A DNA stretch of 61,179 bases, the filler included, from Hausera hauseri (lineage: Eukaryota), in the NCBI GenBank assembly GCA_046269625.1. It is 11 parts of 11 records of this genome, joined end to end, with 100 filler letters (N's around TTAATTAATTAA, not from the genome) between each part and the next. Parts side by side here need not be neighbours in the genome. Positions count along the whole stretch, not along the records: positions 55,228 to 61,179 come from JBJURY010164198.1; 10 more parts are not named here. One strand, written 5' to 3'. Of the stretch, positions 6,858 to 61,179 are shown one piece after another. How positions within the stretch are numbered: the first letter of the stretch is position 1; each line of letters starts with the position of its first letter. Both the position numbers and the translations under genes were made by a program. Under the pieces are notes generated by a model. The model saw only the letters and a program-made list of their open reading frames with translations, was not told the origin of the DNA and did not search any database.

Positions 6858-7013
6858 TTTTACTGCTTCTGAAAGGTCAGACGAATAAAGAATGCAAAAG
6901 TTGTAAAACATCAAAAAATATATAATATAAATATCACGAACACAATAAAGTTAAATGTGTGACGAACCGTCATAGAGATACATTTGCAACCCGTAAAGGT
7001 GGCAGGCACTACA
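6858..7013 (-). repeat. 3' LTR (truncated by contig end) of the Gypsy element
   Basis: Minus strand: purine run GGGGGTA then TGTAGTGCC, downstream of integrase. Confidence 0.65.
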
Positions 7014-10400: not shown

Positions 10401-11704
10401 CAGTTTTTTGAAAACGGGGAATCTGAGCGACTGTTAGAAACGAAAGTTGTGCGTTCGTCACTTGCATGGTGGGTTTGTTTTTAAACCTGCAACCTAGGAT
10501 GCATTTGCATGCATTATGTCTGAATTTTATGCAAATGATGTTGTCCGTATGGTATCCTTGATCATAAAATTTGCACCTAGGTGGCATTTTTGTGCGTTAT
10601 TGTGAAATCTACTGTGGTAATAGAAAATCAGTGATCGTCCAGGTGAAGGTGAATGACCAGGAGATACTAAACGTTTACGGTCACGTATTAAACCCTCACG
10701 TCGAGTCAATGAAATCTCGTTAAGTTTATTTTTCATGGTGTTGATTGTGTGTTGTAGTGACGCATTTTCGGCACGGAAGTGGTTCAACTGGTGCTAAATA
10801 GAAGTGTGTTGTTGAATGTTATCGGTTTTAATGGCGGCTGATATGATGGATTATGCTTAGATTTATAAGACTTCGTTTGCTTTATCTGCGAATTCAGCCA
10901 GTTTATCTAAAGCTGTAGGATCTTCAACAACGGTAAGTAAAGCCCTAATTTGAATGGGTAAGGCATTAAGGAAATATCGTCGAAGTAGATCTGGACTGTG
11001 TTCCTTGGTGACATCTACAGTACGTAAATGAGCCAACGAGGTGCGTAGGAAATCGCTAGGTTTTTGTGTTTTCATTGCGTTTTCATTAAAGAAACGTTGC
11101 ATTATTGAATCAGTTGATGGTTCTGTCTGTTTTAACACAGCATTGAACAATTGCGTATAAGGGTCGGTGTGTTGAAAGATATCGAGTAAGTTATGGATTG
11201 AGGTCTTTATAGAGTTTGGCAGAAGATACAGTAGATTATGGGCTTTGGATAACGAGTCTGTAATACGGTTGGATTGTAGCCATAGTTGATGGAAGTGGAG
11301 CCCAGTTTTGCTAGAATTTTCGTTGTCTATAAATTATTCGGTGCACTGTGGGGAAGTACTGATAGGATTTTTGTGGGAAGAATTTGTATCGTTGAAGTAG
11401 GTGGATGGCTTGATTTGCGGTAGTAAAGAATGGACTTCGGTTTTGTGATCACCTTATCGGTGCTGTCACTAGTTGATGGAGAAGTTATACCGCCGCGGAT
11501 TTTAGAATTGATATGTATACATAGATAGTTATTTGATGCCATGATTTGTGGGAGGTCGGTTAAAATGCACCCGTTGTGGGTCAAGTAGAAATCATTGTAG
11601 GCGGTAGCTTTACGAATGAGGTCATATAATTGTAATGTATCGGTACGGTGTGTGATATTTGTGGCATGTATCAATTTGTTATTAGCAAAAAGGTAGATGG
11701 GAAA
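10400..11704 (-). pseudogene. gag: Ty3/Gypsy (CsRn1-type) gag with N-terminal ubiquitin-like domain (11489-11704)
   Basis: FPIYLFANNKLIHATNIT...DFYLTHNG...CIHINSKIRGG; QKPSDFL..LP.QIRALL..LAEFADK; C-terminal Cys/His boxes; AAAAAAC-TGA slippery site at 10400-10409. Confidence 0.85.
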
Positions 11705-11734
11705 TGACGTTGATAAACAACAAGCTGGATCATG

Positions 11735-12409: not shown

Positions 12410-12800
12410 TGATTTATTCGAAAAGTACGAAAATTCAGGTAAAAGCTACTATTGTGAATATACGACAAAATGAGGCCTTGAATTCGAGGAATATGGGGAC
12501 AAAGTGAAATTCCTATTAGTTTATATTGAACTTTTGGCATGCTACCTGTGTAGGAGTATTTTGATTCAGATGCATTTTTTGCAATTGCGCTGTTTTCAGT
12601 TTTCAGATCAGATTCTGACACAACCACTTTAACACCATACAGCATATTCAGTCCATTTGTGTTATAGGTCAGAATAATGTTATAGAAATCTGGACGTCCA
12701 TGTTATTCTGATTCTATAGGTGCATCCCATTGGAAAGTTAAATGATGTACACCTCTACTAGACAAGTTCGCATATGAAGGAACATTAGGTACAATTAATT
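12410..12800 (-). pseudogene. Fibronectin type III domain fragment
   Basis: VPNVPSYANLSSRGVHHLTFQWDAPIESE*HGRPDFYNIIL and SKYSYTGSMPKVQYKL fit the FN3 W-x-x-P, G-x3-Y and P-x3-Y pattern. Confidence 0.6.
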
Positions 12801-12839
12801 TGGTCTTTATCAGCAGTCGTTTTATGTTAACATACATTT

Positions 12840-15679: not shown

Positions 15680-18600
15680 TTACAATGTCACATGTCCGTG
15701 AGGTAATGTATGGATTCCATCGCTCAGGATCTGCCGCTTGTCATCCATCCAATCTATGCTTTTCTTATGGAGAGTTACTGTTTGGATGTTATGATCCCTA
15801 GATTGTATCCTTCTCATTTCCGATATAAAGTGAGTCTGCTCCTGCTGAACTCTCATTGTTCTCAAAACTGATCTTGGCCAATGTAGCCCTTTGAATGCCC
15901 TTGGCTATCTTTTTAATCTGACCACATACGTCTAGAGAATACATTCTGGACCTGAGAGCCACAAATTTCGAGAGGATCGCTCCATTTACCTCGTCTTTAA
16001 ATTTCCCAAAGACATTCTTATTGGCAATTAAATAGTTGGGATAATCATTCGGATGTTCCGAGGTATCCATGTGTTGAACCAATTGGGCAAAATCCTTATA
16101 AATATCATCTGTATGGATCTGATAAATGAAACTACCAGTATCCATAAACATCAGCTGCATGGACTTAAATGTGACGACCATGATGTCGTAGTGGAAATTG
16201 TACATCAAGGTCTTTGACAGGTCCAGTATCGCCATACCCACATATATGGGTTTGTTGAATACCAATGCTATTTTCAGCATGTGGATGCCTACCAAGTTCT
16301 CAGTATATATGGTGCTGATATGGAAGTTAGGCTCGGAAATAAGCTTCTTTGCCCGCTTCCAGTCACATACTAGCTCAATGTTGATCCTGTTGCGGATATT
16401 CTTCGTGGTCTTGCCAAAAACGCTGTTGTTATATAGTTTTTATTGATCTTTCTTAAAGTCTTTCTTGGCATTAGTCCGCAGCTTAGTATTGAGATTTATG
16501 TATGACTGCATCCACATGGACTGGTTGAACTGCAGGGCTCTATGGACCTTAGTAATGCGGAGTCAATGTCTAGCAGCTTGCTGGAGATTAATGAAATGAA
16601 CTACATACCTTTCCCTATTACCCATATGACAGAGCAACTTTCTATGCCTTCCATGAGCCGGAGACCTGCTCTCAGGGAGGAAAGGCAGCTGTTGATGCCT
16701 TGCGTGGATGGAAGCCGTATATTCCATTTCTACCTCCAGTATGTAGCTTGTATCTCCAGTGGGATCCAGGTCAAATATAGGGATGTTTTCAGGATTCTCA
16801 ACCCATTTGAAGTTATCATATGGCAATGCGACGCTCAATGCATATCCATACAAGTTGTTGGCATCCTGATATGATATATATGAGAATTCTTTGTTGAGTC
16901 GTATTCGGCCATATACTTGTTGTTGGCCTCACTATACCGGTGAATGGCTTGGCATATTCCGCCTCTAATGCCTCTCTTGATCATAAGGATTATATCATAA
17001 TCATTAATGATCTGCGGCCTATACCAGTATATCTCAACATTGCTGCCCAACTCATCCCTGGAGCCGTGAAGAAATGTGCCGGATCCAGTGCATGGCTCTT
17101 CATTGTAACATCCCTGAAACTCTCAAAGACATCCGTCAGCAACACATCCGTCTTGAGGTAAATATCACTGTATTCCCATATTGTTCTGCATTGGAATGCA
17201 TTCCAGACGTTTTGAGCTTGCNNNNNNNNNNGGCTATAAAAACCAGTATTTCCCATGATGTTATATAGTCATAGGGAAATATGCTTTTCTTCTTGACTAT
17301 GTCAAATGTAGTGGGGAAGAACCACTTCGTCTCCTTGAGTTCTTCTGCAAGGAAGTTCTTCACTAAACTATCCAGTGAAGACGACATGGAACAAAAGCTG
17401 TCAATGAAGCGAAGTCGGATTTTGCCCACATGCTTAGTGAAAGTGATATATTTCTCTTCACTGTTGGGGATCACATCTATATTACCATCAATGTTGCCTA
17501 ATTCTCGGACTATGAAATGGGAATCATAAACACTGAGATTATGAAACACTACAGACACATATGTGCATGTTTTGCAGCAAAGATTGAAGTTTTTGCATGC
17601 CGCGCCCCAATATGCATCTGTAAAATGGCAGTGAACCTTAACCTTCCAATTTTCCTTGGTGAAGGACTTGTCGCACAAGTAACATGCTGTTGCCTTGCGT
17701 CATTCTTCTTGTTTCCACGACATGCTCATATTATCCTTATGCTGCTGAAGCATATTTCCAAGCCTATGAGCCATGTCTTCAAGTCGTTTCATGAAATGTG
17801 CTGCTGCACCTGGACCTCTGAATAGAAATGGTTCACTGCCCAGTCCTTTGGCATACATGCAATACGATGAGAGTTCATGATATTGGTATGCCGTTGTTCT
17901 GCTATGTTGAGGACTGGGAGTGTAGCCGTGAATTGGCCAGATAATAGCTTCAAAGTCGCAATAGATAATTATTGGGACCTTGATCTTCTTCTTGAACTCC
18001 TTGAATTTAATATAATCCTCCTTGGGAAATTTTGGCCTGATACAATAATTGTTGTTGCAGTACATTTTGTTCTCAGCAAGCTTGTCCACAGCCGAATCAT
18101 CACTGAAATGGGAAAAGCATCGTTTACATATTTTTATTCTTTTCTTATGTTTCCTAATTTGGGATCTGACTAGACACTCAAAGATTTTGATCCAAACATA
18201 ATGTTTCTTTTCTGCATTGTCTAGTAGGAGCATATCCCTATGATCTTCCAATTCAGTATCATATATCTGCAGGGAACAAAATTTGTCCTCCTCATCCAAT
18301 CCAATAATGTTGATGGATATGTTGTTAATTCGGCAGAACTTCTTAATTTCATCTAAGGATGGAGGGAATGTGATAGATTGAAAGTCATAGTTGTGCTTCA
18401 GATTATTATATAGCCAAAGTCGATCTGCTGCATGTTTTTGATTCGGTACGAGTATTGGTAGAATGGCATACATGAAACACTTGTTGTCATTATTATGGAC
18501 ATTGACACATGCTTTTTATTAGCGATCCATTCCGGAAGCTGAATATAAGAACTGACCCGCATTGGAGAGTACTTGTAAACATACACAAGCAATCTGTTGA

Positions 18601-18843
18601 TAGTTGCCAGAGCCCATCCGCTCTTTTTACTCTGGCTCTCATCGGCTTCATGGATCAGCTTTGCATGCTCTTCATGCAGCCATTGTACTATATTGGTGGC
18701 TTCAAAAATGGGTCTATTTATGGTCTTGAAGTCCCTTTTGGACTCTTCGGCATCAGCATTGACGTATGTGGCTTCCAGTTTTATATTAGCCTTAATGGCC
18801 TTGAGCTCAGCTATGTTGTCCTGGAGAATCCCCTCTGTTTCTT
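15680..18843 (-). pseudogene. polB: Polinton/adintovirus-type protein-primed DNA polymerase B with endonuclease VII-like insert, frameshifted
   Basis: SGWAL..YSPMRVSSYIQLP, IYCDFEA, KVHCHFT..GAAC, FHNLSVYDSH, DANNLYGYA, YNNSVFGKT, FMDTGSF, GKFKDEVNG. Confidence 0.95.
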
Positions 18844-18945
18844 NNNNNNNNNNNNNNNNNNNNNNNNNNNNNNNNNNNNNNNNNNNNTTAATTAATTAAN
18901 NNNNNNNNNNNNNNNNNNNNNNNNNNNNNNNNNNNNNNNNNNNAA

Positions 18946-20847
18946 TCACATGGTAAAATAAGTGTAATACCACACAACCAAGAACGCTACATCACCTTCA
19001 CGAAGCATGTGGGGAAAATTGCGTTGCGGTTCATCGACAGTTTCAAGTTTATGAGTAGCAGTCTCGATGAACTAGCTAGAAATCTACCTCCGGATGCCTT
19101 CATGGAAACAATGCGGTATTTTGATGACAATCGATTGTTCAATTTGGTGACAAGAAAAGGTGTATTTCCATATGAATACATCACCGACTTGAGCAAATTG
19201 GAAGAAACTTCATTGCCACCGAGGGAAGCATTTTCCAGTTCCCTATATCAATCAAATGTATCAGATGAAGATTATGCACACGCACAAAAGGTATGGGAAG
19301 CATTCAACTGTGAAAATATCGGTCAGTACAGTGATGTATATTTGAAGACGGATGTATTAATATTGACCGATGTATTTGAAAGTTTCCGTGCAGTGACAAT
19401 GGCATCACACAAAGTTGATCCGGCTCACTACTTTACAGCACCGGGGATGGCATGGAGTGCAATGCTGAAGATGACAAAGGTAAAGCTGCAGATCATAAAA
19501 GATTACAATATGCTGCTAATGGTGGAAAGTGGAATTAGAGGTGGTCTATATCAAGTCATACATCGATATGCTGAGGCAAACAACAGACATATGCATGAAA
19601 TGTATGATGCAAGAAAACCGGATACGTACATAACATATTTAGACGCCAACAATTTGTACGGATGGGCTATGTCTCATTACTTACCATATGGTGATTTTGA
19701 ATGGATAACATGGACTGGAAATATGGTGGAGGACATACTCGATATACGAAAAACAGCATCCACAGGCTACATATTTGAAGTGGATGTGGAGTATCCGGAA
19801 AGCCTACATGTAGACCACGATCAGCTACCATTTCTACCTGAATTGGTAAAACCACCAGGAAGCAGGTGCAGTAAAATTAAGAAGTTAATTCCCCACCTCG
19901 GTGGTCGGCAGAGGTATGTGGCATATTACCAATATCTGCAGCAGGCAATCAAACATGGATTGAAAATAGTGAAAATCCATCGGGTAATAAAATTCAGTCA
20001 GTCTCCATGGTTGAAACCCTACATTCAATTTAACACGGAATTACGAAAGTTGGCCAAAAACAACTTTGAAAAGGAGCAATTTAAATTATATAACAATTCT
20101 GTGTTCGGAAAAACTATGGAGAATATCCGAAATCGACAGCACATTGAGCTGGTAAACGACTGGAGAAAAGCAAGAAAACTCATCGCAAAAACCAATTTCC
20201 TCAATTCACAAATTTACTCTGAAAAACTCGTTAGCATCCACTTGGCAAAAACCCAACTGGTATTCGATAAGCCAATATACGTTGGAATGTGTATATTGGA
20301 CATGAGTAAATTACTCATGTATGAATTCCATTATGATGTGATGCTACCAAAGTTTGGGTTGAATCAACTGCAGTTGATGTATATGGACACAGACTCGTTC
20401 ATGTATAAAATTCAGTCAGCAGATATATTTGAGGATTTTCATGAAATGGCGTCATTCTTGGATACAAGTGAATATCCCATGGACCATCCAAATTACTCAA
20501 CACAAAACAAAAAGGTGTTGGGAAAATTTAAGGACGAAGTAAATGGTGCCATTATCACAAGATTTGTGGGCCTTCGTCCAAAAATGTATGCTTTGGAAAT
20601 TGATGGTGGTATTATCAAAAAACGAGCGAAGGGTGTACAGCGTGCTGTGCTGCAAAAACATGTGAAATTTGATGACTTCGTGAAAACATTGCACGATGAA
20701 CGAACTATGTTACACACAATGCATGCAATCAGATCACAGGCTCATACAGTAACAACAGTCCAGATACAAAAGGTCAGTCTGAGTAGACATGATGATAAAC
20801 GAGAGATTATGGATGATGGGATAAGAACTAAATCATTTCTACTGTAA
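18946..20847 (+). CDS. polB: Protein-primed DNA polymerase B (Polinton/adintovirus-like), 5'-truncated by contig start, uninterrupted frame
   Basis: FIDSFKFM, RKGVFPYEY, YLDANNLYGWAM (A), KLYNNSVFGK (B), YMDTDS (C), LRPKMYA, KRAKGV. Confidence 0.97.
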   Translation, partial: SHGKISVIPHNQERYITFTKHVGKIALRFIDSFKFMSSSLDELARNLPPDAFMETMRYFDDNRLFNLVTRKGVFPYEYITDLSKLEETSLPPREAFSSSLYQSNVSDEDYAHAQKVWEAFNCENIGQYSDVYLKTDVLILTDVFESFRAVTMASHKVDPAHYFTAPGMAWSAMLKMTKVKLQIIKDYNMLLMVESGIRGGLYQVIHRYAEANNRHMHEMYDARKPDTYITYLDANNLYGWAMSHYLPYGDFEWITWTGNMVEDILDIRKTASTGYIFEVDVEYPESLHVDHDQLPFLPELVKPPGSRCSKIKKLIPHLGGRQRYVAYYQYLQQAIKHGLKIVKIHRVIKFSQSPWLKPYIQFNTELRKLAKNNFEKEQFKLYNNSVFGKTMENIRNRQHIELVNDWRKARKLIAKTNFLNSQIYSEKLVSIHLAKTQLVFDKPIYVGMCILDMSKLLMYEFHYDVMLPKFGLNQLQLMYMDTDSFMYKIQSADIFEDFHEMASFLDTSEYPMDHPNYSTQNKKVLGKFKDEVNGAIITRFVGLRPKMYALEIDGGIIKKRAKGVQRAVLQKHVKFDDFVKTLHDERTMLHTMHAIRSQAHTVTTVQIQKVSLSRHDDKREIMDDGIRTKSFLL

Positions 20848-24956: not shown

Positions 24957-25711
24957 NNNNNNNNNNNNNNNNNNNNNNNNNNNNNNNNNNNNNNNNNNNN
25001 TTAATTAATTAANNNNNNNNNNNNNNNNNNNNNNNNNNNNNNNNNNNNNNNNNNNNAGTCCAACCATGAGTTTTGTTTCTGAAACATTCGCCTTTTACTT
25101 TTCATTATTTCTCCACCTCTTACAGTGATATGGATTCCGATTTGTTTTATTTCCAACACTGTCCATTAATCTAGTTGTATTCCTGTATGAAAAGTTGTAT
25201 TCCATTTATCAGCGTGGTGTTGTATATTTCTACGAACAATTTATGGGAACTCAAATAATATTTTATGGTGACCATGATCAGATGTTTGATCATAAGGATA
25301 TCAGAATATCTGGAACTTTAAAATCAAATCTTCCAAACATCAATAGGAAATGATCCAATAGCCCGATTGGAGACAATTACACCATTTGTAATATCAGCAT
25401 CGTCCTCATCGTCTTCAAACGCTCAAGCAGACCACTCAATCCATTGTTGTGGTGAGACGTGTGAAATAAATCGGAAAGAGGAACGTGGATATATTTTCGT
25501 CAGTGTCATCAGTTTTGATCAGATTCCTTTGGGGTTTGCGTTTTTGTGCCGTACTGGAATATGACAATACGTGCAATATTATAATAACTGTTATCTAGAT
25601 TGTTGATGTTTTGTTTTACGAGACTAAATGAATAGAAACGAAAGTGTAATTTTTTTTAGAAATTTGAATAAATTGATTGAATTTTATGTTGACGATTTGG
25701 AGACCAACATT

Positions 25712-25729
25712 TGGTGTCAGAAATGGGAT
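25712..25729 (+). promoter_or_regulatory. Primer-binding site complementary to tRNA-Leu 3' end
   Basis: TGGTGTCAGAAATGGGAT, 17/18 to TGGTGTCAGAAGTGGGAT, preceded by ACA-tt. Confidence 0.8.
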
Positions 25730-27625
25730 TACCCCCACCGACAAAAAGGCAAAAAATATCTAGCAACGTCGATACAGCCAATTATATGAATATAATTAAT
25801 TGTGGTTCGCATAGTGAAACTCATAATGGTTACATTATTGACGAAAATCTGTACAGCCGTCAATTATATGTTATTGGAAAGGAATGTATGAGGAATACTG
25901 CCAATTCTAACACTGTAATATCGGGACTTGGTGGTCTAGGTGTAGAAACAGCGAAAATTCTCATTTTGGCTGGTGTAAAATACGTTTATGCTTCATGATA
26001 AAAAATTGGTTTCGTCAAGTGATCTTTCATCACAATTTTATTTCAAAAAGTCTGATATTGGAAAGGATCGAGCCGAAGCTTGTCTGGTCAAATGACAAGA
26101 ACTAAATTCATAAGTTATTGTTAACCAAAGCTCAGAAGATTTAACATTGAATTTTCTTAAACGATTTACACTAGTCTTCCGGACGAATTCAACTCACGAA
26201 GAGTGCATAAAATTAGGAAATGTTTGCCATAGCAATAACATTCTACTGATTATTTCACGAAGTGCTGGACTTTTCGGTCGAGTTTTTTGTGATTTCGGCA
26301 CCGAACATTTAATTAATGATGCTATTGGTGAATAGCCGTTATCTATTATGATTCAGAGTGTTTCACGCGAAGAAGGAATCGTTCTTTGTTTAGAAGAAAC
26401 AAGACACGGTGTTGAAGATGGTGACTGTGACGTTTTCCGAATTTAATGGAATGACCGAATTGAATAATTGTGAACCACGGGAAATCAAGGTTGAGGGCCC
26501 AGTAAGTTTCAATATTGGTGGCACGTCGAAGTTATCATCGTACATTCATGGTGATGTTTTTATGCAAGTGAAAATGCCTCAGACTGAATCGTTCAAGTCT
26601 TTTGAAGAAGCTTACAAATCATCGGAATTTGTTGAGTGATTTTGTCAAAATGGAAAGACCCGAACAATTGCATTTGTTGTTATCTTTGGTGGATAAAGTA
26701 TATCCGAATGACTTTCCAAGTCTCTTAAAACAACTGAAAGAGGTCCGTGAAACAGCGTTTCCAAATATCGAGTTAAATGAAGAACTTGCTTCGTCATTTT
26801 TCAACTATACTAATGGAAATCTAGCTCCGATGCAGGCTGTAATCGGTGGTATTACAGCACAGGATGTATTCAAAGCAACTTCATCAAGATTCTTTCAGAT
26901 TAAACAATCCTTTTATTTCGACGCATTGGAATGTTTACCGGACAGTAGCGAGTCAGAAAACATTGCTAATGGATCCAATCCACTCACGTGGAGTACAAAT
27001 CATACGACAGATATGGAAGCCAGATTTCCTTTTTCAGCGTTGATGTCCAACAGAAGCTTTCCCATTTAAAATTGTTTATAGTCGAGTCCGATAAAACTGG
27101 TTGTGCATTGTTGAAAAGCTTTGCTGTAATGGGCGTTGGATCGATGTTCGAGGGTCAGGTCAGTTATAATTATCGATATGGACAATATAGATAAGTCCAA
27201 TCTTAATCGACAGTTTCTTTTCCGACCGTCGGATATCGGCAAATTGAAATCGTTGACTGCGGCAAAAGCATTCGATTTGAAAGTTGGTAAAGAAACCGAG
27301 TCTTTCTTTGACGATTCGTTTTTCGACAGTATTGACATTGTTGCAAAGGCACTGGATAACATCGACGCCCGAATGTACATGTGTATACGATGTGTCTTCT
27401 ATCAAAAACCGTTGCTCGAGTCGGGCACTTTAGGAACGAACATCCAAGTTATCTTTCCTCACTTGATTGAATGGTACAGTTCATCACAATATCCACCGGA
27501 AAAGTCAATTCCAGTTTGTACATTGAAGAATTTCCTATACACAATCGATCATACTATCCAATGGTCAAGTGACATGTTTGAGGGGTTGTTTACTCAGCCA
27601 TCGATTGCTGCACTACAATTTTTAA
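25730..27625 (+). pseudogene. UBA1: Ubiquitin-activating enzyme E1 (5' ~60%), intronless and disrupted
   Basis: [84 protein letters not shown] (active-site Cys). Confidence 0.96.
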
Positions 27626-28682
27626 ATATCAGGGAAAAAATTATTAACTCTGCTAACAATTCACAGTCTACAGAAAACTTCGAAAACGCTGTCATTATTG
27701 CATTTATGGTCGCCGATATGCTTAACGAATTGATTAATAAAAAATTCGATGTTCTCATAAACTTTCTTATTGGTACTTGTTCAGACAAAATTAAAACTGC
27801 CGATGTGTACCTCCAGGTCATTGATCTTCACATTTACAATTTAATTTTGTATTTTGTTTTAATGGCTCAGCTGTTATGCCGCATTGGACGGTATGGCGAA
27901 ATGCCTTATGCTTTGAATTCACTAAACAGAAAGATGACCTCGAATAATTCGAAATTGTTTACCACAAGTACAACTGGCACTATGAAGTAACTGAAACCCA
28001 ATCCACACGAGCTGTATCCTCTATTAAGAAACCGAAACCTTCTTTTCATCCTATTTGCAATAAAACCGACTAAAAGGTACATTGGATTTAATGGTCTATG
28101 ATCTAATTGAATCTTGTCGAAATTATTTGAAAGTTAAATGCTTCGAAATTGTTTGACAAAATTTTAGTGAATCCCAAAGTTTTAGATTGCAACACATCGC
28201 TGGAAGATGACGAAAGGACATGCGAAAGGCGATGAAGTTAATGCCAAGCAAATTGAATCTGCCAGAAACCCATGTGTCTGTCTGTCAAATCGACGCTCAC
28301 TGTCAAGTGTTGGACTTCGAACTTTCTGGCCCAGACCACCGTAATAATCCAATGGACGTACTGCGAGTCAACAGCAACCTCACCGATCGACTGGCAGACA
28401 TTCCATCATTAGAGGCATCTAAACACAGGTTGGTGAAGTTCTCTTCTCTGATTCACGCCCGCCAGTGCGACCATTTTTTGCGAATATACAAATCTTTCAT
28501 AGCTAACACCATTTTTCATTGTAAGGGGGTTTTTAAGCTCAACAACTTTGGATATTCCTTTATCACAATCATCATTTGCCACTTCTTCCCCGGCTGTACG
28601 CTCGAACCTCTCCTTAACCCAGAAGGAAACCGCCCAAGCCCCCCATGCATTTCAACATTATCCTCGGATTACCTCGCTGCAA

Positions 28683-29950
28683 CTTTCCTTACTGGCCTTC
28701 AGCAATAATCAACAAATTAAAGCCATTAGAGCTCCACTCAACACCACAGCGCTGCTCCTATACAACTCTATCCTCCTTACTCAACACTTCTAACTTCTAT
28801 TTCACACATCCAGGTATCACTGTACATCCTGTCGACTCCCTCCTGTCTTTCGTATGCCACGAACGTCCAGTCACCCATCTCATGCTCCATTTTCGTCTTC
28901 GTGGTGGATCGGACTCAAATTCATCTTTCTCGGATGATAGATCCACAAATACATATATTTATCGTCTACCAAATGGTCAACAAAGACGAGCCTTGCTAAA
29001 TCTACCTTGTGGAGATTTTTTTCTTGATAAAAACAACTCCAGCAAACCATGGCTCCAATTCCATCAACAGTGGATAAAATCCAACAACATCATCGACTTC
29101 TTTGCGCGAGCCAATAGTCTTTTGATACTTCTTCCTGCCAACGTCAAGCAGCAGATCAGTAACATCTCTGAACTGCTCCAATCATCGACACCATATGAAA
29201 CACTCTGTGAAGCTGTACTCCATATTATCGATCCTTCGATAGATTACATTATACGTAAATACTTTAATGATCATGCGATAGGAAACCAAAGCCATCCGAT
29301 TTTCTCCAAACGGCCATTCTGCAGTTTAGCACTTTAGGAGTAACACCTACGAATAACGCGGATTTAATTCGACGTTATTTTTTGTCATCTTTGCCTATCT
29401 CAATCAGAGCACTGCTCACCGTTGTCGACGAGTCCACTGCTATCGAAAAACTGGCCATAATGGCCGATAAATCCTTTGAGATTCTCCACACAAATAATTC
29501 TCTCCCAATTTCGGCTGCAACCACATGTGCTCCAACTACAGATACCACATTATTCACTCAACAATTGCAAATGATGCAGCAACAGTTTGACAAGTAATAG
29601 CAGTCAATTAGGACCATTACTACCCAACTAAATAATCTTAATGGGCCTCGACGAAGTGATGCAAAACCTTCAAGGGAGCCAAGCACTTCAAGACTCTCGA
29701 CTCGATCCATTTCACCTGGCGGACGTATAACTTGCTTCTATCACATGCGTTTTCGAAAGGAAACAAGGAAATGTTTCTTGGGCTGTCAATTCTATAGCAA
29801 GCGATACGCTGTAAACAACCCTATCTAAATATACCATAACAAATATTAGTCACAGGCCAGGTCATGTGTGCTTGCTTGTAAACACTATAAAGATAAATTT
29901 CCTCCTTTTCCTTCCTCATCTTTCTTTTCTCCAAATCCTTCAAAAACTAA
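28683..29950 (+). pseudogene. gag: CsRn1-type Gypsy gag with ubiquitin-like domain (28683-28908) ending HLMLHFRLRGG
   Basis: Two-frame reconstruction of a 76-aa Ubl; capsid-like region; C-x2-H-x9-C-x3-C box (CFYHMRFRKETRKCFLGC). Confidence 0.88.
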
Positions 29951-37477: not shown

Positions 37478-38690
37478 TTATACAATAACGGTTCCGTTTT
37501 TCGTTATTTCAACCTGGGCATCAAATACACCGTAAATGTACATCACAGTAGACTGCTCCGACGCTTTAACAAAGTGAACCTCCAATCGCAGGTTTACCTG
37601 CTGAGGTATTTGAGTCTGTTCAACGTCATAATATGGCACCAAGACAAAGGTAAAGAATGGATAGGTGGACTTGAACAAATCCATCGATATGCCATTGTTG
37701 ACATTTTTGTTCAACAAACCCATGTTGCGCACGATATATTGCATGTATGTGCAAACATAATCATTAGACTCAAAGTTTTGTTTGTACGTCTCAACAAAAT
37801 CCGCATTCCAGCCCAAACTGATGTAATTTACATTGCTATGGCTAAATGTTTCCGAATCGGTCGTATAACTGCCCGTTTGTTGAACGGTCGTTTGAAATGT
37901 AACGAGCACAAATTTCGGCAATCGCATGTCACCAAATTGTGCATCTTTGTAAAACGTTGTCGAACCTTTGGGTATGGTATAAAACAAAAGTTTTGTGCGT
38001 TGTATCGGGTAACAGGCATTTACGTTGGATCTACCTTTACACGACGTACGTATAATCGTGCCTCAGTAATTTTCAGTATGGGTTTGAGATTTGTAATTGC
38101 AGTTTTCAAGCAAAATCATTGTCGCTGCGTTTGAGCCGAATCACGACTTTAACACCGGGCATTAGGTGTTTCGGCTGATCGAAAAAGTCAAAGTACAGCG
38201 GTCCACACATGATAAGCGCTTTTGATTCTGCTACCCATGCCTGATGGTTTGGCGCTGTGGCATCGTATCCGATGGTTTTTGTCAACTGAGTCGTTTTCGT
38301 GTCTGCACTGTAATTCAGAGCTGTTTCAATGAGTGCTTTGATATTGCATAGATTGGTGTTGCCTTCAATTTTGACGCTGTTTAGAGTCAGTGAAGCCTCC
38401 TGAAACAGTGTGAGGAAAAGATAATTGGCCGGTGTGACAGTGTCTGTTGCAGCGAGAACCGTCAATGCATCCTTTTTAACAATGACTTTTACATATAGTA
38501 GTGTATCGTTCAAATCCAGGTATTTATTGTCCGATGCCATAATGTTAAATTGAATATCAATATTATTGTCCGTTGAAACAGAATCAACGGGGTAGATTTC
38601 TTCAAATACTGCATTGTCAAAGACACCTTGTGGTGCGCCTTTGCCAAATATACACAATTAAGATTTTGCAAATGCAATTTGCCTATCAAT
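37478..38690 (-). pseudogene. Polinton/adintovirus double-jelly-roll major capsid protein
   Basis: AKS*LCIF, YLDLNDTLLYVKV, PANYLFLTLF, KALIETALNYS, GPLYFDFFDQPK, LRLEVHF; one frameshift near 38000-38100. Confidence 0.9.
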
Positions 38691-42675: not shown

Positions 42676-43934
42676 TAGTTTTTTGAAGGTTTTGGAGAAA
42701 AGGAAAAGTAGGAGGAAAAGCGAGGAGATTTATCGTTGTAATATTTACAACCAGGCACACATGATGTAGCCTGTGACTGAAACTTATTTGATAGACTCAA
42801 ATGGGGTTGTCCACAGCGTACCGTTCGCTGTAAAACCGACAACCCAAAAAACATTTCCTAGCATCCCTTCGAAATCGCGTGTGATAGAAGCAGGCCATGC
42901 ATCTGCCAGGTGAAATGGATCGAGCAGTGTCTGGAAATGCTTCTCTCCCTTGAAGGTCTGGTTTCACTTCGTCGAGGCCCATTAAGATTATTTAGTTGGG
43001 TATTAATGGCTAAAATCGACTGCTGCAACTCGTCAAACAGTTGCTGCATCATTTGCAATTGTTATGAAAATGAAGTGTTATCTGTGTGTGAAGGTGTGTG
43101 AGCGGTTGCTGCAGCTACTGGTTGTGTATTATTAGATTGCAAAATGTCAAACTTTTGTCTGCCAATAAGGCAAGATTTTTCAAGGGCCGTTGAGTCGTCT
43201 ACTACAGTAAGCAGCGCTCTAATGGAGGTTGGCAAGGATGAAAGAAAATACCGACAAAAAAGATCTCATTGTTTATAGGAGTGACGCCTAAGGAACTCAG
43301 TTGAGATATTGCTGTTTTGAGGAAATCCGATGGTTTTTGATTTCCGATGGCATGTTCATTAAAGTATTTCTGAATTATGTTGTCAATGGAAGGGTCGGTA
43401 ATGTGCAGAAATGATTCATAAAGCATATCATATGGGGTTGAAGAAGTAAGTATATCAGCAAGATTGTTGATTTGCAGCTTGATAATAGCTGGAAGTAATA
43501 GCAGCAAACTGTTCGCCCGCAAAAAGGAGTCTGTGATATGATTGGCTTTAAGCCATTGCAAATGGAATTGTAACCATGTACGACTCGAATTTTTCTTATC
43601 AAGAAAAAAATCCGCACAAGGGCGATTTGGAGATACATTTGGTGTGGGGTCGTCAGGACAACGACCAGATCTGATTTTGGTTAAATTTTCGGCAGAAGGG
43701 TCAGAGTCTGATCTACCACGGATACGAAAATGGATAGTGAGAATCATTAAATGCTTCCCGGATGCAAAAGATGACAGAGTCGGAAGGTAACAGAGTCAGG
43801 CCATTGTGCATGCAATAAAAATCGGAGGAGCCGAAAAAGGAAGACAATGCAGAATAAAGGATATGTGCCGTATGTTTGCATGCAACCCTCAATGTATATA
43901 CATGTTTATTATTGGAAGAAATAAAAAAAGAAAG
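42675..43934 (-). pseudogene. gag: CsRn1-type gag with ubiquitin-like domain (43712-43934)
   Basis: LSFFISSNNKHVYTLRV..SDFYCMHNGL../LTIHFRIRGR (GGT AGA); CFYHTRFRRDARKCFLGC; AAAAAAC-TAA at 42675-42684. Confidence 0.87.
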
Positions 43935-44872
43935 GGGGTGCAGTACAGCGGGATCGGGCAAGCTCGGTCCCTCAGCTACACAGTTTATCGAATGCTCCTT
44001 AAATGTAGAAAGATAACCAATCATAAAATTACTTTGAAAAATTCCAATGGTCTGTGAAGTCTGAGTTGTCACAGAGACACCCACAATTATTGTAGGCTTT
44101 GTATCAGCAGTATTCGTGGTAAACTGCAATGAACCTGGATTATCCGGCGTGAAACTGGTTGAAAAGGGCGCATTCATCTGCTTCTGGTTTTCATCATTTT
44201 CTGAAGTTACTAGAGATGCGGTTGTTGAAGCAGTTGATAGTTCCGTGGTAAGTGTAGCGAATGATTTTGTAGTCAACTTTGATGACCCGAGAAGGAAATT
44301 CGTTGATTGGTAAGATGTTGGGATTGGCATATAATTAAGAGTCGAATTTCGATGTTTATCACTGAATAATTTTCAACTTTGACATCTGACTCGTGTTTAC
44401 CCCTCGAACACTCTGAAAATTTCTCCATTTGTTTTATTATATGGAAAATTTTGGCCACAATTAAAACATGCCAACACGTTTTTATCATCTTTGTCGTCTG
44501 AATTGTGNNNNNNNNNNNNNNNNNNNNNNNNNNNNNNNNNNNNNNNNNNNNTTAATTAATTAANNNNNNNNNNNNNNNNNNNNNNNNNNNNNNNNNNNNN
44601 NNNNNNNGTGTCCTGATAAAAAGCAAATCGACTAGAATTTTCTCTTTAAGACGCTACATCATTGTGTTTCTTTTGTAGAAATGAACATCTGCAATTTATT
44701 GGACTTTGCAACTGTGAATTGTTTTTATGGATTAGTGGTCGGCAGAACGGCAAAATGTTAATTAATAAAATTTGCATGGTTGTTTATGATTTAACATTTT
44801 ACGATTGAGAAGCTCCACTGAACAGACATTTCATTATCTCAAATAATCGACAACTGGCTTGAAGTACATGTA

Positions 44873-46157
44873 CAGAGGTGGTCAAATTATTACAATCAAG
44901 GCATAAACATAGCACTTGTTGCATATAGTTAGTAACTGATTACTAACAATTTAGTTACCGTACAAATTTAATTATGTTTTGATTTCTAGCAAATGTTATT
45001 TAAATATTTAATGCAGATAAAACGTTAGTATCACAGTTTTATCTTGTTTCTTGTTGAATAATGGGCAAATCTCGTGATTTAACGGAATCAGAAGTCTCTA
45101 AAATTAAAGTTTTACTTCAACACACCGACAAGACACAGAATGAAATTGCATTAATTGTTAATGTATCACAGTGAAAGGTCTGGCGTCAAAAGCAGAAGAA
45201 ATGGAGCTTGTGGAAGAAAGATTGTCAAATCCTCTTGATGATCGGATATTAAAAAACGTAGCCATGAACAATAGAAGGCTGACGTCTACAAAGCTCCAAA
45301 ACAAATGGACTAAACATAATGTTGTAGCTAGCACGCGCACAATCCGACGAAGACTGTGTGAATTTGGCTTATTTGCTCTCAGACCAAGAAAGAAAGCGAA
45401 ATTAACTGCTGGAATGATGGAAAAACTATATCAGTGGGCAAGAAATCTTTCCCACTGGAATTCTGATTATTGGTCTAAAGTTGTCTTCACGGATGAGTGT
45501 TATATTGAAGTGAAGAATAAGCAAGGCCAGTATGTAGGAAGGTTTCCAACAAAAGAGTTGGAAAAAAAACTGTGTTAGTTAAACGGCCAAGCATCATGAG
45601 AAATGTATGACATGGAGCTGCTGCAAGGCTTTTGGTACTGGGAGGATAAAAATTCTTAAATGTAGCATGAATGCTACTTGTTACAAAGGTGTTTTAATAG
45701 ATAGTTTGATACCACAATTGACTGAATGGTTTGGTAATGTTGGTGAATGCATTTTAATGCACGATGGAGCACCAGAGCAAAAAGCAAAGACTGTTACCTC
45801 TTTTCTTCAGCACAGTTGAATTCGTATATTGGATTGGTCTGGAAACAGTCCAGACATGAACTCCATTGAAAATTTATGGAGCATTTTGAAGAATAAAATC
45901 CATCAGCACAAAATTAATACCAAGCAAATACTTGTTAAATCTATCATTCAGTCGTGGCATGGCGATGGAATAATTTCTCAGAAATGTGCATCCATGATCA
46001 GACAGATGCCAGAGCGAATCAAAGCTTGCATCAAAGCCAAAGGTGGATTTACTAATGGTAACAATTTCAATTTAAAAATAAAATATATACATTCTGGAAT
46101 GCCTTTTATGTTTTTGTCTGATTTTCCTGGTTCACTGTAATAATTTGGCCACCTCTA
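44873..46157 (+). mobile_element. Tc1-family DNA transposon (DD34E), near full length, disrupted transposase 45061-46060
   Basis: TA-flanked TIRs cagaggtggtcaaattattaca / tgtaataatttggccacctcta; MGKSRDL, VFTDE, HDGAP, WSGNSPDMNSIENLW; 34 codons between D and E. Confidence 0.95.
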
Positions 46158-52732: not shown

Positions 52733-52743
52733 TTCGGACACCA
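52733..52743 (-). promoter_or_regulatory. Partial tRNA-Leu PBS-like motif
   Basis: Minus strand ...ATTACA-a-TGGTGTCCGAA (10/11 to TGGTGTCAGAA). Confidence 0.55.
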
Positions 52744-52744
52744 T

Positions 52745-53305
52745 TGTAATTTCGAAACGTTGTAAATAAACTCGTATATAAAGGTTTCCATCGAAGCAAT
52801 AATTAGAATGATCCAACGGCAACAAAATATAAAATTTATATTTTTAAATTTTTTACAAATCAATTTTTTTATATTCTAAATCTACATATTCATATTGTCT
52901 TGCATTAATATATTTCGTCTTTCATTAGAAAAAAACGTGCCATTCGGACCTTTTTCTTGGTTATAAAGTCACGAGAAGCTTAATTAGGAAAACTGAAGTA
53001 AGAATTAGTCTAGTTGATAAATTAGTCTAGTATGATAAATTGACGATAATAACGATGAAGATTGTTGAAAAATCGTTGGTGAGACCAACGAAATGTCATT
53101 CAAATTCGTTGAGAATTTGGAAAAATTAAATGGACTGTCCACTGATTCCGTTTTGGTTTATTGATAGAATCGTTTTCAAATAGCTAACAACAAATAAATT
53201 TAGTCGTTGATTATAGTAAGCATTCATTAAAGAATTAGTAGCACCCATTATGGATTGTGGCGGATTGTAGTGGATTGTGGTGGCACCCGAGCCCGCGGCA
53301 CCACA
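52745..53305 (-). repeat. Candidate complete LTR (~560 bp, TG...CA)
   Basis: Preceded by purine-rich CGGAGGTAA downstream of integrase; starts TGTGGT, ends ATTACA; AATAAA inside. Confidence 0.6.
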
Positions 53306-55127: not shown

Positions 55128-55446
55128 NNNNNNNNNNNNNNNNNNNNNNNNNNNNNNNNNNNNNNNNNNNNTTAATTAATTAANNNNNNNNNNNNNNNNN
55201 NNNNNNNNNNNNNNNNNNNNNNNNNNNACGATAATCGAACCTACTCAAAAACTTCATACGGACTAGAGGTAATAGAAAGATCCACAAAAGTGATAACGAC
55301 GACTACTTCTACAAAAATACCGTCACCTACTTCAGTGTTACCGCGAGAAATAGCGACAAGTCCAAAAGTTGAAATGAAAAAGTTGTTAAAGAACTGGACA
55401 TAACAGTGCAACCAACGACACACTCCCTCATCATTACATTACCGAT

Positions 55447-55896
55447 TTGAAAACAATAAATGTAATATTTGAATGCTTCCTTCACAACAGGATGGTAAAT
55501 GAAGGAGTAATCACATCAGAAGAACCAACATCGGCTTGTTTCTTTTTAAAGGGCGATGCGAATTATAAAATTCTATTCACAGAATTAGACGAAGAAGGGC
55601 AAAGCTTGCAGACTGCTATTCGAATGGAGAAAACTTTGAAACAAATACTTATGATAACTAAAAGTGTTATAAAAACAACTACAATACAGAGTTCTGGAGT
55701 CATTTCAAAAGGATACCTCGAAGTAATCGTTATTGTTTTCGGTACTTCCCTACTATTAATAGTCATGTTGCGCCCCTTAGTACATTATATAAACAAAAGG
55801 CGTAGAATAAATAAGACAAAAATTATATTACAACAACTTAAACTATTAAGGGAAGATCCTCAAAACAATCGAGATATAAATCAACATCCATTTTAA
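55447..55896 (+). CDS. Orphan ORF fragment with one C-terminal transmembrane helix
   Basis: YLEVIVIVFGTSLLLIVML followed by basic KRRR; preceded by a Thr/Ser-rich stretch. Confidence 0.4.
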   Translation: MKTINVIFECFLHNRMVNEGVITSEEPTSACFFLKGDANYKILFTELDEEGQSLQTAIRMEKTLKQILMITKSVIKTTTIQSSGVISKGYLEVIVIVFGTSLLLIVMLRPLVHYINKRRRINKTKIILQQLKLLREDPQNNRDINQHPF

Positions 55897-56172: not shown

Positions 56173-56935
56173 GTGAATAAAGAAAACATACAAGTGAAGA
56201 GCACAGTTAACCCCAATGGTACGACAGACACCATCGAAATAATCCCACAGATCACGATCCATTTTGATCAAAGATTTTACAGAAACGTCGCAATAACAAT
56301 ACGAACCCTCATTAGTCGTTGTCCATTCATCTACATTGAAATAGCTAAGAGGGAATTCTTCATTCGACCCATCTATCAGATACCCCACTACAGCAAGCCT
56401 ACCCCAAATGACTCTCAGTTGGAAAAACGGATCTCCTTCACCAGATATCCAACAGTACAAAATAATCAAATATTAATTATGGCAATCAATTCCGCCGATT
56501 TGATGAAACCAATCGGGAAGAAAGAAAAAGTCCTGATAGAAATTACTCTCATGGATTTGGACGAAAACGGCATGCTCGACCACATTCTCTGTCCAAGATA
56601 TAGGATTGACAGTTATAATTGTCATATCACTGGCCTAAAAGAAACAGATATAATTAGCTGGACAAACTTCCTGGAAATGGAATCTGAAATCAGAAAACAC
56701 TTGGTCGGAAAAATTATTGTCGGTATGGACGTCTATCATATATTCATCCATACCTATCCCTATAAATATGAAAACCTACTAGGTCTGAGAGACCTTCTCC
56801 ATCACGATTATACCAGTCCTAATGGCAATCAGACAGAAAAGCAACTCCTCTCCAGAAATAATTACCAACGATAAAAGCAAAAGCATCGACGATGTTAAAA
56901 ATTTACAATTCTATCTCCGAATATCGAAATGAGTT
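56173..56935 (+). pseudogene. Degenerate DEDDh (REX4/ISG20-like) exonuclease-fold gene
   Basis: IMAINS..LIEITLMD..LDHIL.P..IDSYNCHITGL..IRKHLVGKIIVG..LRDL; SIDDVK in a shifted frame after the stop. Confidence 0.65.
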
Positions 56936-57432
56936 CATAAATCAAAAACATGATAAAGAAAGTCTGACATGAATAGATACAGGAAAATCTGTGAAAACAC
57001 CGATATTGACGTCCTCTCAGGCAATGGTGTCAATACAGACATCTTTTCAATTGATAGCACCAATCCCGACGCTTTCTCAAAGACCAGTGCCCAACCAGAC
57101 ACTTTCCCTGAGTACAACTTCAATTTAAATGCCCTCTTCAAATGCGGAACCAATCAATTGGCAACCCTTATTATGAGATATTTTATCTACTTCAGATACC
57201 ATAGACCTCACAAAAAGGAATAAAAGAACAAAAAGCACACTTACTTTTAAAAGAAAAATCAAGGAGGACAAGCGGCGGTTGGAATTAGATGCTGCCAGAT
57301 ACTGACGTCTGGACATATCCTTAAAGATCTACCCATTGAAGTCTAGGACGGCTTTGCAGTGTGACGGATATCATTTCAATGGTCGGCTGCGCATCTTGTG
57401 GAGATTTGTTCAGTGAATTACCAGCACGACAC

Positions 57433-57443
57433 TGGTGTCAGAA
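57433..57443 (+). promoter_or_regulatory. Partial tRNA-Leu PBS
   Basis: ACA-c-TGGTGTCAGAA, 11/11 match, fused directly to IPO5 coding sequence. Confidence 0.65.
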
Positions 57444-60410
57444 AAGTCAAGCAGAAAGCACTTATAAGTCCAATGATATCAAAAACAAACTGGAGTTGCT
57501 TTTGAACGTGCTTTCGTCTCAACAATATGATTTAGATGCACAAATATTTGCTGGAATATTCGCCGTCGTTTATTGGATTCGTATTTCAAAGAGGTTTTTT
57601 CAGGTTTACCGAATGAAACCCAAACATTTACCAAACAGAAGCTATTGGAGTGGATCGTAAATGAAAGCCATCCGACAATTCGTAAGAAATTGTCGGAAAT
57701 CACAATTGAAATCGCCAAAGAAGATTTCGATGACAATGGAAATCTATTGTTTCCGGAATTGTTGCAGTTTGTCTTCGACGGTTGTCTCAATTCGACGGGT
57801 GATGGATTGAAAATCATTGGTTTGCAAATTTTCTATGCCTTGCCGAACTTCTTGGGCGAACAATTGGCAACGAATATCGATTTAGATTGTCACATTTTCA
57901 TTACTCCGATGAACCAGACGACCAATGGGGGATTGTTGCAAAATCTGGAGATTCGGTTTTCCAGTGTGAAGACGATTTCATCGTTTATTGTGTCGCAGGT
58001 CGACGAGAACAGTCCATTTCGGCATATGGTTAATATTGTTCCGATGATGTTGCAGACAACGGCAGATTCAATAACGGCAAATCCGACTGATGATGTTGGC
58101 ATAAAGGGGCTAGTGGATCTTGAGGATTCGGCGTAGGAATTTTTGGAATGTCGTACGAGTGATGTTTTGCAATTGTTTGAATACATTGCACATTGGCGAT
58201 GTCGACGATTCACAGAAACATTTGGCCGTGAAAACATTCGTGACATTAACCGAGAACATTCCCGGTGCCGTCAAGAAATTCAGTAATCACATGCAGGGGC
58301 TTATTCATATTTCATTCAAGATACTGACGGAATTCGAGGACCATCCTATATTGGCGACATTGGATGTGGAGGAATATGAGGATGACACGAGCCCGAGTAT
58401 TGTTGCCGAAACGCCATTGGACAGAATGTCAGGTGCGAAGGGCGCGATGCTGCACAGTGCTAAATGGCAGGAAAGATATGGCGGACTGATGGCCATCTAG
58501 TCATTTGCTGAGGGACTGAGTAAAGTTATGGAGGTGATTCTGTGGTCATTAATTGATGAGATTGTCCCACTGTTGAGTGACACTCATCTTCGTGTTCGTT
58601 ATGCTGCATGCAATGCAATTGGTCAGCTATCGGCGAACTTCGTTGATAAATTACAGAAAAGTTTCCATGGAAAAATACTGCCGGCATTGATGTCTGTATT
58701 GGATGACAACTTGTATCCTAGTGCCCAGGCATATGCTGGTGCTGCTATGGTCAATGTCTTTGAATTGACACCAATGAACATTCTCTTTGTCTATCTACCA
58801 ACACTTGCCGAGAAATTGCTGCACGTTCTCCAAAATAAATACAACGAATTTCTACAAACCGGCCGTAAATTAGTTTTGGAACAAATCATCACAACAACAG
58901 CCGCACTTGCCGATTCATCGGGCGAAGAGTTCGCATCGTACTATGATAGTTTCATGCAATTTCTGAAATTTCTCATGCACCAATGCAATAGCGATTCATT
59001 GAGATCATTACGTGGCAAAATCATCAAATATATTTCCCTTATGGGATTGGCCGTTGGTCACGATCGATTTCTCCCCGATGCACAAGACGCTATGCAGTTG
59101 TTATTGAAAACGCAACCTGTCGATGAAGACGATAGTCATGCTAATCCTGTTGACGATCCACAACATAGTTACGTGATCAGTGCGTCGGCACGTATTTGCA
59201 AATTTTTGAGCAAATCGTTTGCTGAACTTCTCAAATTGGTCATGAAATCTGTCCTGAAAACCGTCAGTATCAAACCGGATGTCTGTATGATGTACAAAGA
59301 TGAAGCGGAAGACACTGACAAATACTCGCAAGTCGTGAAACTTGCCGGCAATTAGAATTTTGCAATCCACAGTGTGGACTGGAGGACAGGGCAATAGCAT
59401 GTCAAATGCTTGTTTATTACGCACAGGAATTGTCAGATGCGTTCTATCCGCAAGTGATGCAAGTAGCCAACATAATGATTCAATTGTTGAAGTTTTTTCA
59501 ATGACGAAGTACGCAGTAGTGTAGCAAACATTATGCCATATGTAATTGGCTGCAGTAGTCCATTGGGTCATGTAACCACTCATGAATTGTGGGAGAGAAT
59601 GATCAATTCATTCTTGAGTACAATTCCCAATGAACCGTACAAGACACAAATTGCGGCTATGATGGAGGCATTAGCAGAGGGAATCAAGAAAATGGGAAAG
59701 AAGTCTGTCAGTCCTGAACGAATGCAGTTGTTAATTTACATAATAAACAAACAATTTGATAAGATATTCAAGAATCAGGATAGTCGAATACGGAAGAGGA
59801 AGTCGGATGAGTACGAAGAGGAAGATGAGGAGAATTTGTAGACGGACAGAGATGAACACGACGACATTCTGTATAAATTAGTCGATATCATGCATTTATT
59901 GTTCCCCTCGTATAAGAATAACGCATTGCCGGTATTTGAGTAATTGTTAACAAATGTCATAAAATTGCTCGAAACTGGTAGATCATGGACGGATGTGCAA
60001 TTTCGAATTTGTTTCTGAGATGATCTTATCGAATGTACCGGTCCAGTTAGTTGACGGTACTGTCAGAATTTTCTACCGGTCATGTTTGGTGGACTGAATT
60101 ATGAACTAAAGGAAATTCATCAGGCAACAGTTTAAGGATTTGGTGTATTGATAATGTGTAGAGGACCAGATTACAGTAACATTCGCCGGGCGGCATTGTC
60201 AATTCTTGTTGGTCTAATTGAGACATTGTGTTCACTGGATGAGTTGATCAATATCACAATAGAGAATGCCATCAGAGCATTGACGAAGATCTGTAAATAT
60301 CAACCGGATCGGATACCGTATGATGATCTGAATGGATTCCTCAGTAAATGGATCAATTAGTCACCGACCTGGAAGGATGGGGAAGAAACTCCAACATGTC
60401 ATATGCTATA
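57444..60410 (+). pseudogene. IPO5: Importin-5 (karyopherin beta-3), near full length, intronless and disrupted
   Basis: QAESTY, IRKKLSEI, RVRYAACNAIGQL, GRKLVLEQI, LRGKII..ISLMGLAVG, MQLLLKTQ, DDPQHSYVISA, ENAIRAL. Confidence 0.95.
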
Positions 60411-60931
60411 TGGATACGCTTTGGAACCTATTCAGCAAGAGTACATTACTAAAATGTTAAATAAAGATTCGAAGTATTCAAATATATCCGGTAATACCCC
60501 ATGCACTCTATCAAGTAGAACAAGAGAAGTAAAACAGGAAAGCGCGTCAAAACTTCTTCTGGGTTACAGTATTTTATCGTGAAACGCGGAAGAATATCAT
60601 GCATGAGAATCCAGAGGAAAGAATATATCAAATTTGGTGAAATTCGGCAGACGTCTTACAATCACAGACATTTAGACACAGGTTGATGGAATTTTTGTTG
60701 CAGATTTGCACACACCAGTACAATCATTTTTGCATGTAGACGAATTATTAGTAGCCAATACCAGTATCAATTTTAAAAGACCTTTAAGTTCATAAACTTT
60801 GGATATTATTTTATTACAATTAATATTTGCCACTATTTTCCATGCTGCGCGCTCAAACCTTTTTCAGGCCAAAAAAAACTCTTCCAGCCTTAAACGTACA
60901 CCAACGCTGTTCTTGCATTACTTCACATCAA

Positions 60932-61087
60932 TTTTCCTTTTTGGTTTTCAGCAATAATCAACATATAAAAACATTAAGAGCTCCATTCAACGGCACAGCA
61001 CAGCCCTTATACAACTCTTTGACTTCCTTACTCAACACTTCTGACTTCTACTTCACATATCAAGGTCTTACTATACAAGTAGATAGA
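60932..61087 (+). pseudogene. gag: Ubiquitin-like domain of a fourth Gypsy gag copy, cut by an LTR insertion
   Basis: FSFLVFSNNQHIKTLRAPFNGTAQPLYNSLTSLLNTSDFYFTYQGLTI; upstream 60646-60930 aligns to 28393-28680. Confidence 0.8.
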
Positions 61088-61179
61088 TGTGAGCACATGG
61101 CGTCAGACCCCCGCAGGGAAGAAACAATGTTTAGCGTGGGAAAATTTTCTGGACCGTGGGGAAATTTTAATGTTATGGG
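61088..61179 (+). repeat. Start of an LTR-like element related to 14359-14774
   Basis: TGTGAGCACATGGCGTCAGACCCC vs TGTGAGTACTTGGCGCCAACCCC. Confidence 0.5.

Follow-up and report, generated by a model that had tools for sequence, protein, structure and literature searches.

An importin-5 pseudogene joined to an LTR PBS and followed by part of a Gypsy Ubl region: a likely retrocopy in Hausera hauseri

The DNA analysed here, referred to as the window (61,179 nucleotides of Hausera hauseri, assembly GCA_046269625.1), consists of 11 short animal contigs joined through artificial N spacers, and elements within it are therefore not neighbours in the genome. The contigs are repeat-dense and carry decayed copies of four host genes, IPO5, UBA1, POLD1 and NAT10, of which the IPO5 copy lies in the last contig (55228-61179). 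Coordinates of the main features are collected in Table 1. Contigs from X1, the only sequencing run listed with this stretch and possibly its source sample, were compared with the window; their summed depth is not to be read as a copy number. No RNA data set is listed with the stretch, which carries no information on expression.

Table 1. Features around the IPO5 copy and related copies elsewhere in the window
Feature	Position	Strand	Remarks
Ubl copies	11489-11734 (-), 28680-28908 (+), 43716-43961 (-)		also in P0250-P0253, P0256, P0258
Second PBS, 17/18 bases	25712..25729	+	overlaps apparent UBA1 start codon at 25723
Decayed colinear UBA1 copy	25723..27687	+	residue 1 to ~690 of 1067 (P0201)
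UBA1-bearing element: S/T-rich segment, then Ubl (GG end near 28908) and gag	28393..29930	+	pol onward to 31918
10/11 PBS-like motif ahead of POLD1 copy, behind a Gypsy 3' end	52733..52743	-	ambiguous
3' end of LTR, ending in CA	57358..57431	+	only these 74 bases common to X1 siblings
First 11 bases of tRNA-Leu(CAA) PBS	57433..57443	+	after CA at 57430-31 and one base
Decayed IPO5 copy, sense to element	57444..60435	+	residues ~23-1020 of ~1095
Linker	60436..60645	+	no A-run of at least 7; X1 repetition about IPO5 level
Segment common with 28.4-kb Gypsy element, probably decayed S/T-rich coding ahead of Ubl	60646..60913	+
5' two-thirds of Ubl domain, cut before GG end	60914..61077	+
Different, very deep repeat interrupting Ubl	61078..61179	+	X1 summed depth 3234 in last bin

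The original prediction placed about 3 kb of intronless IPO5 sequence, devoid of its first residues, directly behind the PBS; in the alignments the copy has this place and length and no intron-size insertion. In a frameshift-aware alignment with 44 full-length homologs, IPO5 similarity begins at 57442-57445, corresponding to consensus column 23-24 (column 19 at low penalty), and the K of KSQAE is made up of the last two PBS bases and one further base. Alignments with individual homologs span 57442/57564 to 60435-60450, including matches to residues 72-1078 of 1154 in P0002 and up to residue 1022 of 1093 in P0006; about 75 C-terminal residues are absent. Compared with four homologs, the biggest insertion is at most nine codons and the biggest deletion 13, and the copy may have lost introns. 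It matches PF25780 (E 9e-27), is 44-53% identical to the 120 importin-5 matches listed, and falls on a long branch with P0001, P0002 and P0015 in a tree using 63 of 129 proteins. With nine in-frame stops and four frameshifts (near 57563, 58174, 59376 and 59495), it is a pseudogene and no working gene. The X1 summed depth reaches 30-96 over 57616-60401, where single records have 6-8, and variants with several different internal deletions occur, a pattern that points to IPO5 being repeated in X1 as many diverged copies. No X1 contig was recognised as the parent IPO5 gene.

On the 5' side, the X1 summed depth is 23-62 over 57358-57437 as compared with 5.9 upstream. Four X1 contigs carry different sequence ahead of 57358/57368, three depart at 57431, directly after the CA, with dissimilar continuations (agreement 0.58), and record 5, although it matches 57373-57431 without a difference, runs into other sequence from there. 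The repetitiveness expected of an LTR over 57250-57431 is thus seen for 57358-57431, but the DNA upstream of that is at single depth. The 11-mer that follows has the properties of a tRNA-Leu PBS, being complementary to the tRNA's 3' end and placed directly after an LTR ending in CA. The available parts of PMC8905726 name an identical 12-base PBS for Steamer, assigned to tRNA-Leu, and those of PMC7997516 describe a tRNA-Leu(CAA) probe whose start matches the 11-mer. Only two exact copies of the 11-mer (25712 and 57433) were found in 120,578 non-N bases, both strands counted, where 0.026 would be expected. Record 2 of X1 tracks the window to 57443, completes all 18 of the 18 PBS bases and then enters non-IPO5 DNA. 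Since the repeat ends at the CA and a sibling has the full 18-base PBS without IPO5, the motif at 57433 is a genuine PBS behind an LTR end, as had been proposed, cut after base 11 in the window.

Continuity across the join was followed in the 13 X1 records mapping across 57230-57700, a join being regarded as bridged only if the 31-base rule of the tool is satisfied. By this rule none of the 13 bridges the window's own LTR-PBS-IPO5 join, and 57502-57549 is left uncovered. The PBS-IPO5 join (57429-57493) recurs in record 6 with six differences in 65 bases and with different DNA upstream; it reaches just 15 bases on the PBS side, under the 31-base rule.

Exonuclease-like and transmembrane ORFs are seen upstream of this LTR end. 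An open ORF of 233 residues at 56173-56871 (+) has RNase_T (DEDDh exonuclease) as its top ESM Atlas match (0.90, 164 shared features) and no Pfam match, and resembles accessory exonucleases in rotifer LTR elements. At 55228-55893 (+), a T/S-rich stretch is followed by an ORF with a hydrophobic segment and basic residues, env-like by eye; the X1 summed depth at 55427-55625 is 319. Other elements in the window, labelled by eye, include ORFs like Polinton-type protein-primed DNA polymerase and capsid (15798-20847 and 37478-38657) and Tc1/mariner-like transposase pieces (45162-46140, +).

On the 3' side, DNA common with the 28.4-kb Gypsy element begins about 210 bases past the IPO5 end (60646-61077 against 28393-28826), with 71% identity over 60666-61077. 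Element sequence is indeed present within the ~250 bp claimed; what had been called a leader, however, is probably decayed S/T-rich coding sequence leading into the Ubl, and would then be no plain leader. The frame at 28.3 kb aligns with an ORF at 43713-44372 (E 2e-5), in which an S/T-rich stretch likewise runs on into the Ubl. An ORF at 28211-28708, taken by eye for an HD-domain piece, gave no Pfam, PDB or Atlas match and is probably a wrong frame. The Ubl-gag expected after IPO5 is there only as the 5' part of the Ubl, which is broken off at 61077, and no gag is present in this contig. Loose X1 contig ends at 61077/61078 number 18 and 30, the 18 contigs at 61077 continuing with other sequence. 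Within the linker, at 60458/60459, one X1 record (depth 30) carries extra sequence.

A second gene in the same arrangement was also part of the original prediction. UBA1, at a 17/18 PBS and with Ubl-gag-pol after it, answers to this description, but the IPO5 contig is without gag, none of the X1 records extends over the whole element, and the stretches preceding the IPO5 and UBA1 PBSs did not align with each other (the score was attained by 41 of 100 and by 179 of 500 shuffled sequences). The LTR is therefore not tied by sequence to the Ubl family; such non-alignment is expected for LTRs of subfamilies that are 64-79% alike in coding DNA. In each case the 5' join falls inside the PBS: IPO5 is attached after base 11, and UBA1 somewhere in bases 11-18. 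Both cargos are in sense orientation, start at or near the N-terminus, have different 3' cut points and are free of intron-size insertions, and no A-run of at least seven bases occurs in 60420-60660 (IPO5 linker) or 27680-28400 (UBA1 linker). Upstream of both the UBA1 motif and the POLD1 motif, the opposite strand has acidic coding-looking frames without a Pfam match, at 25100-25480 (-) and 52960-53200 (+) respectively.

For the remaining host-gene copies the PBS assignment is less clear. The POLD1 motif is ambiguous, since an ATG in the POLD1 reading frame overlaps it. Near NAT10, a 9/11 motif at 14274, one of 12 such matches in the window, was not accepted as a PBS; it is probably native coding sequence for Trp-Cys, some 42 codons ahead of human residue 103, and NAT10-like residues presumably extend upstream of it. 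Another 10/11 motif, at 12623, lies inside an open frame and was taken as chance. With POLD1 ambiguous and NAT10 rejected, a convincing PBS is present in two of the four host-gene copies. No homology was found among the regions upstream of the PBS-like motifs in the window. After the NAT10 copy, a stretch at 12500-12804 (-) is fibronectin type III-like by eye, with no Pfam or PDB match, and could be a second cargo. The Gypsy 3' ends at 7013 (-) and 53305 (-) each have a purine-rich tract and then a similar 9-base TG start; the POLD1 motif comes about 560 bases after the latter, as in a tandem sharing one LTR.

Across the Gypsy family, a Ubl precedes a DUF7041-type gag and ends in GG in most copies. 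Other window copies proceed from gag to protease-RT-RNase H-integrase, which is the Ty3/Gypsy order and is not found in the IPO5 contig. Ubiquitin is aligned over its full length by a Ubl profile of nine members (E about 0.05 for the single domain), and the model of the P0253 Ubl (pLDDT 84.8) matches ubiquitin with E 8e-6 and TM 0.76-0.80; the window-only profile and model gave no PDB match. As judged from these models, the Ubl is real at the family level, with a predicted beta-grasp fold and a C-terminal GG, the IPO5 copy being without the GG end. A Ubl-gag search covering 1.84 billion representatives returned nine matches. In the top match, P0250, and in P0259 from the same cluster, the same Ubl-gag is preceded by DIS3L residues ~45-360 (E 4e-25) together with a piece of CNOT1 (E 1e-16); both are gene models, from contigs 3554 and 7611 bases long, read as protein, and may come from the same organism. 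Five more of the nine are Ubl-GG-gag, and P0254 is a false match due to SprB repeats. A word-index search with Ubl-gag yielded none among 218 candidates, and viral and metagenome locus scans were empty.

The IPO5 copy is bordered by LTR-element sequence on both sides, with the LTR end and PBS at 5' and the Gypsy Ubl region at 3', and is without poly(A) at its 3' join, as is the case for LTR-mediated retrocopies; its missing C-terminus and the lack of an A-run do not agree with a LINE-made processed pseudogene, for which poly(A) and an intact 3' end are characteristic. We lean, with somewhat better than even confidence, towards a retrocopy made in the particle of the element, with its PBS join behind the LTR end and part of the Gypsy Ubl region at 3', and we infer that the LTR end and PBS, IPO5 and Ubl are parts of a single element. 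Minus-strand synthesis would switch once, from the element template to a host mRNA, and then come an irregular plus-strand transfer joining the PBS copy to the cDNA end, which would fix the 5' join at the PBS; the UBA1 chimera may have arisen by the same route. Deletions adjacent to the PBS have reportedly been described in a retroviral paper. The accessible parts of the cited sources state that plus-strand strong-stop DNA includes a copy of 18 tRNA bases and has to pair with the end of the minus strand (PMC8599865), that cellular RNA is carried in particles (PMC5086612) and that template switching by LTR elements gives sense, partial, poly(A)-less retrocopies which can be re-amplified (PMC5131818).

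Only one step would differ if the copy had instead arisen by a double minus-strand template switch, following the model of Tan et al., with a preferred switch-back site within the PBS, and we regard this as a possible, though tentative, explanation. Five BLASTOPIA retrocopies share one fixed switch-back site, and the median microsimilarity is 6 bp, in the available text of PMC5131818; the UBA1 start shares six bases in register with PBS bases 13-18; and the IPO5 consensus has an invariant R (44/44), with V before it in 12/44 and S after it in 12/44, which is codable like PBS bases 5-13. However, the IPO5 join is out of register by two bases, a comparison that concerns the copies and not their parents, and both robust joins (n = 2) fall inside the 18-base target, none deeper in the leader. 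Since plus-strand transfer and double switch give the same product, LTR-mediated capture in total can be considered quite probable. It is very improbable, on the other hand, that the 11-mer belongs to the IPO5 coding sequence itself, as DTGVR in a shifted frame, and that the copy reaches further 5'. A low frameshift penalty does extend the alignment to DTGVR against consensus DNDVR, and an in-frame ATG lies 21 codons upstream, but when the PBS is kept fixed the extension score is attained by 33-61 of 400 random flanks, and the 74 bases upstream are a repeat that is elsewhere followed by the full PBS and non-IPO5 DNA.

The arrangement could also be a patchwork at the DNA level, in which what is left of LTRs, parts of Gypsy elements and gene fragments, these last derived from an intron-poor genome or from other retrocopies, were united through nested insertion or recombination, or by short reads being misjoined through the 74-base repeat. 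The small extent of the shared LTR sequence with single-depth DNA upstream, the unbridged join in X1 among repeat-dense contigs and the NAT10 copy, which precedes Ubl-gag without a real PBS, would all fit such an origin. Nevertheless, all three copies with a visible 3' side (IPO5, UBA1 and NAT10) face Ubl-gag in the same orientation, as do P0250/P0259, and two joins lie at the PBS where the exact sites expected per window amount to a small fraction of one; we therefore consider the patchwork unlikely. A more far-reaching form of the capture reading, which we find doubtful but worth stating, is a Ubl-Gypsy lineage with a standing cargo slot at the PBS, which would routinely capture long 5' parts of housekeeping mRNAs (IPO5, UBA1, perhaps POLD1, NAT10, DIS3L and CNOT1) and spread them, and in which Ubl-GG could let host deubiquitinases free gag from any fused ORF in front of it. 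If true, such release of gag would mean that capture costs the element next to nothing.

Returning to the retrocopy made in the particle, a 5' join that is fixed in the PBS would mean that the structure records second-strand transfer as a route of gene capture, countable genome-wide and testable against the double-switch model. One family would then be filling this animal's genome with decayed core-gene copies of nearly full length, affecting annotation and ortholog calling and providing raw material for retrogenes. The IPO5 cargo itself is dead and therefore implies no new function.

LTR-mediated retroposition and a fixed switch-back site (BLASTOPIA) are already known, and the IPO5-PBS join would be a variant of a known process. 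A literature search, largely of openly available papers, found no paper on a cargo joined inside the PBS or on a Ubl-gag Gypsy element. The term 'PBS' is absent from the main text and the nine searched supplement files of Tan et al. 2016 (PMC5131818). As far as the available text of that study goes, the likeness is considerable, with gene copies that are sense, partial, free of poly(A) and bordered by DNA of LTR elements, more truncation at the 3' than at the 5' end, multi-gene chimeras, secondary amplification and the BLASTOPIA switch-back site; its copies, however, have a median of 26% of the transcript and replace internal ORFs, whereas here about 90% of the IPO5 CDS stands between PBS and Ubl region, with the join in the PBS. 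The accessible portions of PMC6431247, PMC5408684, PMC6338049 and PMC7264820 describe accessory ORFs and transduction in other arrangements. Among these, bdelloid Vesta/Juno (PMC5408684) and planarian Burro (PMC6431247) similarly have extra non-core sequence in Gypsy elements, but there the ORFs remain open and are placed behind pol or in the polyprotein, while here the cargo is decayed and differs between copies. Steamer, in the parts of PMC8905726 consulted, has the same PBS sequence beside an LTR ending in CA. Maize Bs1 and plant LTR transduction (PMC7264820 and PMC5131818, in their available parts) share with the present case the sense host-gene pieces inside an LTR element; in contrast to these, the carrier here is an animal Gypsy element, with different housekeeping cargos at one position ahead of Ubl-gag.
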